From Escherichia coli (GTDB lineage Bacteria > Pseudomonadota > Gammaproteobacteria > Enterobacterales > Enterobacteriaceae), in the NCBI RefSeq assembly GCF_003334305.1, contig NZ_QOWS01000039.1: a stretch of DNA of 22,909 nucleotides. One strand, given 5' to 3'. Positions 10,677-13,600 of this stretch are shown here, piece after piece. Position 1 is the first letter of the stretch; each line of letters starts with the position of its first letter. The notes below the pieces were generated by a model, which saw only the letters and a program-made list of their open reading frames with translations, was not told the DNA's origin and made no database searches. Both the position numbers and the translations under genes were made by a program.

Positions 10677-13600
10677 TTGGAAGTAGAAATGTGGGATGGT
10701 GGCTTACAAGAACAGGAAGTATTGGCTATCGAGAAAATAAAAGCTGCTTTTTCAGTCAACGTATCTAAGCCTGACAAGCCTTTCCGTAGCGGTTCAATTA
10801 GTGAGCAGCTAAAAAGCTATGGTTTTATCGGCAATGAAATGTTCCCTTGGAAAGGTTATGCAGGTTTTCGATTTGTTGAGGCAAAAAAAGAGGGGGAATT
10901 CGATTTAGTTATTGTAACACACTGCAACGTGATCATTGTTGAACTGAAAGACTGGAACCATCAGCCTGTAACCGCACGCGGAGATACTTGGTTTAAAGGT
11001 GATAAGAACATGGGGCGCTCGCCAGTAAGCGTGACTCGTAGCAAAAAATTCATGCTGGACAAAAAACTCAAGCGTCTGGTAGACCGTTTTACGAACAAAG
11101 GCTATATCCCGATTGTTCATTTTTTTGTTGTGATGACCGGCAATGCAGATTTCAGCGCGCTGCCGGAGGAACAACGGCGCCATACGATCTCGTTAAAAGA
11201 TTTCCTGAAGTTTGCCGATCGCGGGAGCTTCAATAACTATTTCAAACCGCACCCAGCTACCAAGGTTCTTAACAAGGATTTCCATCTTTTCGATGATTTG
11301 TTCCTAGGGCCTCAGACGGCACCAAAAGCCTTGAGAGTTAATGGCTATGAAGCTAATGATATGATTTTCGAACATCCTAAAAAGGTGTATCGAGAATATC
11401 TGGCAAAATCTGAGATATCAACGAACAGCGAAGCGCTACTCAGAGTATGGAATTTTAGAAATATAACGGGAACGAAAGCGAATACCCCGGAAGGACGAGC
11501 TCAGATTGTTTCACGTGAGCGCGAAGTGTTACAGCACATCAATCACCAGAATCGTGACCTGTATAACCACTGTCTCAGGTCTTTGACGAGTTTTCAGAAA
11601 GACGAGGTGACGGCCGAGTATAGCGAAGTCTACGAAGTTCCGCCGGGTCATGTCCGGTTTAATGAGTTTATCGGAAAATATGGTAAGAACTTTTCTGATA
11701 TGGACCGCTTGAATGTGGTGAAACTGCTCATTGCAAAGTTTAGTGATCTCCATGAGATGAAAATTGCGCACAGGGATGTCGCCGATCACAGTCTGTGGAT
11801 TTCACCTTCAAAAGAAGTTGCTCTTTCGAACTTTATTTCGGCTTACCACCAGCCAGCCGGAACGGTTGGCGATTACCGTAAGCTTTTATCCGTAGGTGCA
11901 GTCCACGTAAAAGACATGCTTGATAAGGGCGAGCTTACGCCTTTTCAGCAAGATGTTCATACTCTGGGCCTTGTCGCCTGGCACTTATTTAGCGGTATGC
12001 GCATGTCGCCAAAGAGTCTGGAGAAAGTACAGGACAACATGCTAAACAGCCAGCACTGGTATTCATCTGTATTACGGGATGCCGTTGCCGCAAAATTCAC
12101 TTCTGCAACAGAATTCTTTGATGCCCTGAAACAAGCCGAACCTGCTGGCAAGGATATTCCAACATTTGATGATACTGAGCTTGACCCTTACCGACATGCT
12201 ATCAATCACGCTCGTCAATACCCGGAAGACGATGGCTTTCAGTTTCAGGTCGAAACAGTCGACAAAGAAGTCTATATCTCGAAAGGAAGGCTCGTGAAGG
12301 CTTGGCTGAATGTTGGGGGACAGGGATACGATCCGTCAATTAATTTCCAGGTTCTGAAGTTTTTAAAGCAGGTTGAGCGGCTTTCTTCAGTTAAAACAAC
12401 GTATCTACCTCAAATTCGTGAATTCGGTATCGCATCAAAATCATCAAGCCTATATATGGTCACGGATCAGGTACAGGGAGAAACCTGGGATAAAATAGCG
12501 GTCCCCGATGATGAAAAAATCGACCTCATTGGTAAGTTTGTCGCCGCCGTTGAGCACTTACATGGTCTGGGTGTTTCTCACGGGGACATCCACCCTGGCA
12601 ATGTGATATTTGAGACACAGAGCCGTTTGCTTTTTCTCATCGATATCCCCGATTTTTCACCGTCCGGTGACGAACCTAAAAATCACAGTTACAGCCCTGA
12701 ATACATTGATAATTGTACTTCTTTTGAACGTGACAACTATGCAGTGATGAAGATGTCCTGCGAGTTGCTAGGCATGTCATGGGGGCTGGAATCAGACATT
12801 TATCCGACAATCGCGAATGCTATCCGAGCAGAGCTGGAAGATCCGGTTTTTGGGTTTAAGGATTTAGGCCGCTTTAAAAAAGCGATAGATAGTAATGACC
12901 TGGTGCCAGAACAAGACCTGATAGAGATTACTGCAGGAAATGCCGATGAAATAATCTCTATTCTGCCTGATAACGGGCATCTGTATGTCAAAGTTAAGTC
13001 AAATCCTAAAGCGCCAGCTGAAGTAAATGTGACTTTCTCTGGGATTGGTGGCAGTTTTACTGCGGTGTTCAACAAAGATCAGAAGACGCTGGTTCATGGC
13101 TTCAGGCCACGGGCTCGCGTCACAATTCGTAAGCAAGATATTGATGAAAGCCAGTTCGAAATTGATACTGGCATCAAGATTATTCCCGGCAGTCCGCAGG
13201 ATCTGTCGGCGTTGACAGTATTGCTTAATGAAGAAGAATCTTTTGCGCGGGCAATCGAGTTGATTGCCGCAACTGAAGATGTTCAGGTACAAGAGCCACT
13301 TACGCTTCAGCTAAAAGATACCTTTGCAAGGCTTGATAAGCAGACGCTTGAACCTTCTTTAAGAGAAGTGCTGGAAATCCCAACAGTGAAACTGTGGCGC
13401 GCCATTCTGGATACTGAAACAGAATCTTATCCAAACATTGAAATCAGCGGTGAAGTGGTCCCGGTTGCAGATGCTCATGGAGAGCTTCTTCTCCCTTACT
13501 CTGCTGATGTTGATCCACTCGGTGCTTTCAGAAGTAGTGATGAAGTCGAAGCCTTACAGGTCGATCAGGAAGGTGTTGAGCGATTTATTGGTGAAGTGTC

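Follow-up and report, generated by a model that had tools for sequence, protein, structure and literature searches.

A NERD-type PD-(D/E)xK domain at the N-terminus of MkoA as a candidate effector of a two-gene type I Mokosh locus in Escherichia coli

The window analyzed here, a stretch of 22,909 nucleotides of E. coli DNA, contains a two-gene locus that we assign to the type I Mokosh anti-phage systems, in a layout with a long MkoA protein whose N-terminus carries a NERD domain of the PD-(D/E)xK nuclease type. Judged from the sequence, the domain is real and far beyond a chance D...ExK string, and in this layout it is the only intact canonical nuclease site. As the effector of the window system it is a plausible candidate, although one that we place somewhat short of probable. 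The object itself is already known, namely an annotated domain in a validated system that was correctly re-identified here. The modestly new element is a complementary pattern, in which NERD on MkoA accompanies a decayed HKD site on the partner protein MkoB; a statement of this pattern was not found in the papers that could be searched.

The NERD nuclease core lies at positions 10845-11135 (all coordinates given are on the plus strand of the window). Its Pfam part, 10845-11093, corresponds to residues 53-135 in a match to PF08378 (i-Evalue 1.1e-6, 29.6 bits), and the last strand of the core extends to residue 149, both counted from the ATG used by RefSeq. The catalytic signature is encoded at 10896-10949, with codons for E70 (10896-10898), D72 (10902-10904), E85 (10941-10943) and K87 (10947-10949) in ATG numbering, which are E74, D76, E89 and K91 when counted from an upstream TTG; the segment 10893-10955 encodes the peptide GEFDLVIVTHCNVIIVELKDW. 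The first-pass annotation had proposed a NERD-type domain with D76, E89 and K91 within 10719-11280. That span does hold the domain, the HMM search against PF08378 is significant with the values given above, and the invariance of the signature bears the proposal out. E70, D72, E85 and K87 are unchanged in 23 close homologs (42-89% identity) and also in eight distant ones, a set that spans the Ralstonia MkoA (25% identity) and the mad6 kinase of a Bacteroides MADS locus (18%). Precomputed PF08378 matches are present on nearly all of the 68 homologs of the first 260 residues, and all long MkoA proteins examined contain NERD. Orthologs at 25-60% identity retain W58, Y61, W93 and W105 in addition to the four catalytic residues.

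An AlphaFold2 model of residues 1-260 (pLDDT 84) displays a restriction-endonuclease-like fold in which D72 and E85-x-K87 occupy consecutive strands. The nearest structural neighbor of the NERD nuclease model was Upx. Foldseek comparison of the model with the PDB gave no significant match, sequence search of residues 1-260 against PDB chains returned nothing meaningful, and a PHROGs search with the NERD domain gave no match.

The domain belongs to mkoA (10677-15647), an open reading frame of 1656 residues that combines NERD, a kinase-like domain, a kinase and an Upf1-like helicase; at full length it was recognized by PADLOC as MkoA (PDLC03921, 2206 bits). Directly downstream, mkoB (15644-17080) encodes the 478-residue partner of MkoA (PDLC03923, 503 bits), and on reading the sequence the stop of mkoA and the start of mkoB were found to share 4 nt (ATGA). 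RefSeq places the start of mkoA at the ATG at 10689. The TTG at 10677 is a further start candidate, as an AAGGAG at 10664-10669 ends 7 nt before it and the homolog alignment shows N-termini (MEVxxW, MEVxxWxGGL) that fit it; residue numbers from the ATG equal those from the TTG minus 4. Upstream of mkoA, a consensus match marks a promoter-like site at 10535-10564 (TTGCCC, 18 nt, TATAAT), in a window where the count of such sites is not above that in shuffled sequence. The sequence upstream of mkoA is also contained in the SG199 native-promoter construct of Millman et al.

The DNA of the locus is 100% identical to that of E. coli chromosomes, e.g., ATCC 43896, and in chromosomes of this type it resides within an integrase-bearing island, where the PGAP product name of mkoA is merely 'AAA domain-containing protein'. 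The neighboring ORFs of the island had no PADLOC match. Among 5,426 complete E. coli genomes, 353 contain the locus, and relatives of the MkoA N-terminal region were found on 190 plasmids of the searched collection.

The first-pass annotation had presented the locus as an alternative to type I Mokosh, which was wrong. Because of the PADLOC scores of MkoA and MkoB and the identity to the verified system of E. coli SEC470, we assign the locus itself to type I. The SEC470 system (SG199), for which Millman et al. (2022) verified phage resistance, consists of the same two genes at equal lengths (1652 residues, the MkoA count from the ATG, and 478) with the same upstream region, and the window sequence is another allele of it. 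Over the first 399 residues of each protein, which is the part printed in Table S2 of that preprint, 369 of 399 residues (92%) are identical for MkoA and 392 of 399 (98%) for MkoB. Of the 30 differences in MkoA, 29 fall within residues 23-208, i.e., in NERD and the linker, and they leave the catalytic residues untouched. In the same table SEC470 MkoA is described as 'Kinase-Helicase', NERD not being noted, and MkoB as 'HTH' only.

Comparison with a second verified type I system, that of E. coli H10407 (SG202), suggests that type I Mokosh has two layouts, in which the intact canonical nuclease site is located on MkoB in one and on MkoA in the other. H10407 also encodes an MkoA with kinase and Upf1-like helicase and an MkoB with a winged helix. 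However, its MkoA is only 1215 residues long, has the kinase at its very start (family PDLC03920, matched from position 3), and its first 399 residues contain no NERD. The H10407 MkoB (602 residues, PDLC03922) is labeled 'HTH-PLD', matches PLDc_2 at 6.4e-9 and has the motif SHAKIIVCD...GSCNW, conforming to HxKx4D...GSxN. The two types are related: the window MkoA matches PDLC03920 with 435 bits over residues 878-1635, so its helicase is homologous to that of the H10407 type, and the N-terminal ~240 residues of MkoB are homologous between both. The short layout is represented by one system known by sequence (H10407) and by a Bacillus nealsonii system that has the same Table S2 labels and showed no defense.

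For the long layout, we considered the loci with a PDLC03923-type MkoB for which the whole upstream gene is on record; they come from metagenomes, from assembly GCA_001570285.1 and from Acinetobacter, Pseudomonas and Ralstonia plasmids. Each of the seven loci has an upstream MkoA (1569-1741 residues) that carries NERD. Four of these proteins, from the assembly collection, have precomputed Pfam matches for NERD, kinase, AAA_11 and AAA_12, and the three from plasmids align over their full length and keep the NERD signature, with the Ralstonia MkoA scoring 1201 bits on PDLC03921. It is chiefly because of this complementary distribution of NERD and HKD that NERD is put forward as the nuclease of the long layout.

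The first-pass annotation had also assumed that no separate PLD-type partner exists. The gene for a partner does lie directly downstream, and the assumption is accurate in so far as window MkoB has no significant Pfam match, PLD models included, and no HxK motif anywhere, in agreement with its 'HTH' label; it fails at the level of fold. MkoB has a winged helix-turn-helix at 15746-15922 (~residues 35-93), and an AlphaFold2 model built from 87 sequences (pLDDT 94) indicates a PLD-like fold in the C-terminal part (16511-17077), whose nearest structural relatives include the non-catalytic FAM83B and TrmB. Here, H422 and G436 stand at the canonical +14 spacing of an otherwise decayed HKD site. With HKD positions assigned by motif spacing and not by profile alignment, the His (0) is kept in 76 of the 87 family members and replaced by Tyr in eight, the Lys (+2) occurs in nine of 87 and is S424 in the window protein, and the Asp (+7) is absent from the family column and from window MkoB, so that only two of 87 sequences have the full HxKx4D. 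The Gly (+14) is invariant, the Asn of GSxN is changed to Thr or Ser (Thr in the window protein), and E408 is invariant as well. Window MkoB thus belongs to type I although no HKD active site of a PLD-family nuclease was found in it.

Because of this decay, canonical phosphohistidine catalysis by window MkoB is unlikely. Non-canonical catalysis is possible, given the retention of the His in 76 of 87 members and the invariance of E408. The MkoB family comprises ~290 clusters at 50% identity, consisting mostly of proteins of ~475 residues that have no Pfam annotation. When the MkoB alignment served as a profile query, the best 120 of 497 matches were likewise only ~475-residue proteins lacking Pfam domains, with no PLD-bearing family among them. 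When the family was compared with the H10407 MkoB fragment by hhalign, only the winged-helix region was aligned, at 0.3% probability. Sequence search of MkoB against PDB chains yielded nothing meaningful, and no match was obtained in PHROGs. A distant member of the MkoB family has two dsRNA-binding domains fused to it, which points to MkoB as a putative reader of nucleic acid and not its cutter.

The expected fusion of NERD to kinase and helicase domains was confirmed in MkoA by Pfam matches to Pkinase, AAA_11 and AAA_12. The first kinase-like domain (11331-12068, ~residues 215-460) shows a weak Pfam Pkinase match at 270-446, and strands 220-254 in the AlphaFold2 model resemble kinase N-lobes. 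Its motif reads H-R-D-x3-H-S-x-W, and because the Lys and Asn of the canonical HRDxKxxN are missing, the domain is probably an atypical kinase or a pseudokinase. The second kinase domain (12276-12788, ~residues 530-700) is Bud32/APH-like, having a Lys in LVKAW, the motif HGDIHPGN and LIDIPDF as the equivalent of DFG. It is matched by Pfam Pkinase at 577-657 (E=1.1e-5) and by many PADLOC models of PD-T4-6 defense kinases. Its motifs (K541, HGD, D656) are kept in six of seven orthologs; the exception is the Acinetobacter protein, in which HGNLDDEK replaces HGDxHPxN and the motif is degenerate while NERD and helicase are intact. Some 350 residues without a domain assignment separate the second kinase from the helicase.

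The helicase is an SF1B helicase of the Upf1/DNA2-like type (13890-15524), with AAA_11 at residues 1068-1377 (E-value 1.2e-37) and AAA_12 at 1404-1612 (7.7e-42) in ATG numbering. In TTG numbering, its Walker A motif GPPGTGKT is at residue 1094 and its Walker B motif DEAA at 1349. It had PDB sequence matches to Upf1/NAM7 (7e-30) and DNA2 (8e-23). Both Walker motifs, like the NERD signature, are invariant in a comparison of seven long MkoA sequences of full length (28-58% identity). Architectural precedent for MkoA is provided by DNA2 and Upx, in which a PD-(D/E)xK nuclease is likewise combined with a helicase. Unlike MkoA, however, the proteins Upx, Nhi/Nhi-like, Hna and DNA2 have neither two kinase domains nor an MkoB partner. 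Both the nuclease and the helicase of Nhi are reportedly needed for defense.

Building on the observed domain identities, conservation, gene pairing and homology, we infer for the long layout a nuclease activity, its substrate, a complex and an order of events. MkoA and MkoB would assemble into a complex in which the winged helix and the PLD-like scaffold of MkoB, together with the helicase, recognize phage nucleic acid; RNA, an RNA/DNA hybrid or a replication intermediate are candidate ligands. The helicase would then move along the nucleic acid with ATP and pass it to NERD, whose active site (E74/D76/E89/K91) may cut it in a metal-dependent manner; cleavage of DNA, as put forward in the first-pass annotation, is one possibility. 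The kinase module may gate or report this activity. NERD would in this way fill the nuclease role held in the short layout, as in H10407, by the HKD-bearing PLD of MkoB. Taken as one package, i.e., two layouts with the nuclease swapped, MkoB as an HKD-less pseudo-enzyme reader, NERD as the sole nuclease and a portable cassette gated by kinases, the proposal is rather doubtful.

Published work touches this mechanism at several points. In a review of 2023, the entry 'Mokosh type I, Nhi-like' includes NERD (PF08378), its function being given as 'N/A', and a review of 2026 describes Mokosh as incompletely characterized. A published nuclease assay for the NERD of Mokosh, PglW or MAD6 was not found in the searchable literature. 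Counting against NERD as the effector, Millman et al. report that defense by Mokosh is abolished by mutations of the PLD active site; a search for the construct that was mutated did not find it. A type I Mokosh of CFE331 is evaded via T4 DNA glucosylation and Alt; since its layout was not found, we do not count this as evidence.

The effector role of NERD has to be weighed against its occurrence in other defense proteins. In PglW of the Streptomyces Pgl system (BREX type 2), NERD spans 12-130 and is followed by an atypical kinase (195-490) and a Hanks kinase (537-704), and the first ~700 residues of MkoA parallel this order domain by domain. The NCBIfam models of PglW and MAD6 align to MkoA residues 53-456, with scores below their cut-offs (MAD6, 109 bits versus 460; PglW, 84 bits versus 990), and what is shared by MkoA and these two is the N-terminal cassette alone. 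The same cassette, with E-x-D...E-x-K kept, occurs in MAD6 of the Bacteroides MADS locus, alongside a methylase, an S subunit and mad7. PglW and MAD6 differ from MkoA in lacking an Upf1-like helicase and have methyltransferase, PglZ or mad proteins as partners. NERD plus two kinases thus appears, from these comparisons, to be a portable unit that is used across systems with different partners. The reading of NERD as the effector is weakened by this recurrence, because the cassette also resides in PglW and MAD6 beside other candidate effectors. In this light, NERD may instead be a sensor or regulator that binds foreign nucleic acid, or does no more than nick it, and governs the tandem kinases next to it; defense would then be achieved by kinases that phosphorylate proteins of the host or the phage, following an abortive-infection logic as with Stk2 and PD-T4-6, or by the helicase, which would strip nucleic acids. 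The parallel with PglW and the alignment of the PglW and MAD6 models agree with such a role, as do the recurrence of the cassette as a unit in the MADS locus and the likeness of the second kinase to the PD-T4-6 models. Pgl function, moreover, requires the kinase activity of PglW, whose NERD was termed by one author 'a possible red herring'. The full E-x-D...E-x-K set, however, is invariant even at 18% identity, which is more than binding alone needs, and the Acinetobacter protein has lost its second kinase motif with NERD and helicase intact. We consider the sensor role rather unlikely.

The effector could also be sought in MkoB, acting through a non-canonical PLD-like site composed of H422 and E408, or another residue in place of the Lys, with NERD as an accessory that may process ends or load substrate. 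The conserved His and Glu allow for this. Opposed to it are the changes at the Lys, Asp and Asn positions described above, including the Ser in the window protein, the Tyr that replaces His in eight members, the failure of the Pfam PLD models to match, the non-catalytic proteins among the nearest structures and the label of 'HTH' alone in the table of Millman et al.; on balance, we regard a nuclease role of MkoB as quite improbable. Finally, NERD might be a vestige without current function in defense, in keeping with the lack of functional data for the domain and with a PGAP product name that refers to the AAA domain alone. Against this stand the invariance of the four catalytic residues together with the Trp and Tyr positions at 25-60% identity and the fact that none of the long MkoA proteins examined lacks NERD; a vestige is very improbable. 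The preferred reading of NERD as the nuclease of the long layout retains the plausibility stated at the outset.

Mokosh is among the commoner anti-phage systems, and a kinship with the piRNA machinery of animals, which has the MOV10L1 helicase and the PLD6 nuclease, has been discussed. The literature already records NERD in type I Mokosh but assigns it no role. If NERD does cut in the long layout, the analogy of PLD and piRNA would cover only part of the family, and mutagenesis should be aimed at E74/D76/E89/K91 and not at MkoB. A cutting role in Mokosh would have implications for the NERD of PglW as well, which has long gone unexplained.

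Comparison of MkoA with the verified type I Mokosh allele of E. coli SEC470 revealed 30 amino-acid differences in the first 399 residues, 29 of which lie within residues 23-208 (ATG numbering; window 10755-11312), i.e., the NERD domain and linker; residues 209-399 differ at a single position. MkoB is 98% identical to its SEC470 counterpart. The clustering of differences in residues 23-208 could mean that the allele is a mosaic produced by recombination, or that the surface of the NERD domain is under diversifying selection. The E-x-D...E-x-K signature of the NERD domain is common to MkoA and Mad6 of a MADS-type locus on a Bacteroides finegoldii plasmid (L015:2957-14128), despite 18% identity. 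This locus encodes an N6 methylase, an S subunit, Mad6 (a NERD-kinase of 1390 residues), Mad7 and an ATP-binding protein.

The NERD and helicase motifs are intact in the MkoA orthologue of Acinetobacter pittii plasmid pHNJXA13-1 (L012:6501-11726), in which the kinase-2 motif HGDxHPxN is replaced by HGNLDDEK and kinase-like domain 1 carries HGD instead of HRD. The kinase may be dispensable in this lineage.

The Mokosh system of the window is housed in an integrative island, which over 1952-10026 contains a tyrosine integrase (1952-3154), an HTH/excisionase-like ORF (6258-6566), a YfjI/DUF3987 protein (7191-8642) and an inovirus Gp2-type protein (9463-10026), with a TOTE-system primase pseudogene annotated by RefSeq immediately upstream of mkoA. 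RtT sRNA repeats adjoin the island. A 605-residue ORF beside the integrase (3341-5158, minus strand; RefSeq 'hypothetical protein') had no match in PADLOC or PHROGs, and could be additional cargo of the island or another of its defence genes.

Because the mkoA stop and mkoB start overlap by 4 nt (ATGA, window 15644-15647), the sequence suggests translational coupling of the two genes. The junction is also tight in orthologous loci: the two genes overlap in five of them, and on the Acinetobacter and Ralstonia plasmids a gap of 2-3 nt lies between them.

Within the MkoB family, HxKx4D is complete at the H422 position in two members out of 87 (P0099 and P0114); an active HKD nuclease thus seems to have been the ancestor of the family. 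A 997-residue MkoB homologue is encoded on metagenome contig Ga0105359_10001139 (L003:8001-10994), preceded by a 1625-residue NERD-kinase-helicase MkoA and adjoined by a type I restriction-modification system. Its C-terminus carries two dsRNA-binding domains (PF00035), which hints that MkoB reads double-stranded RNA.
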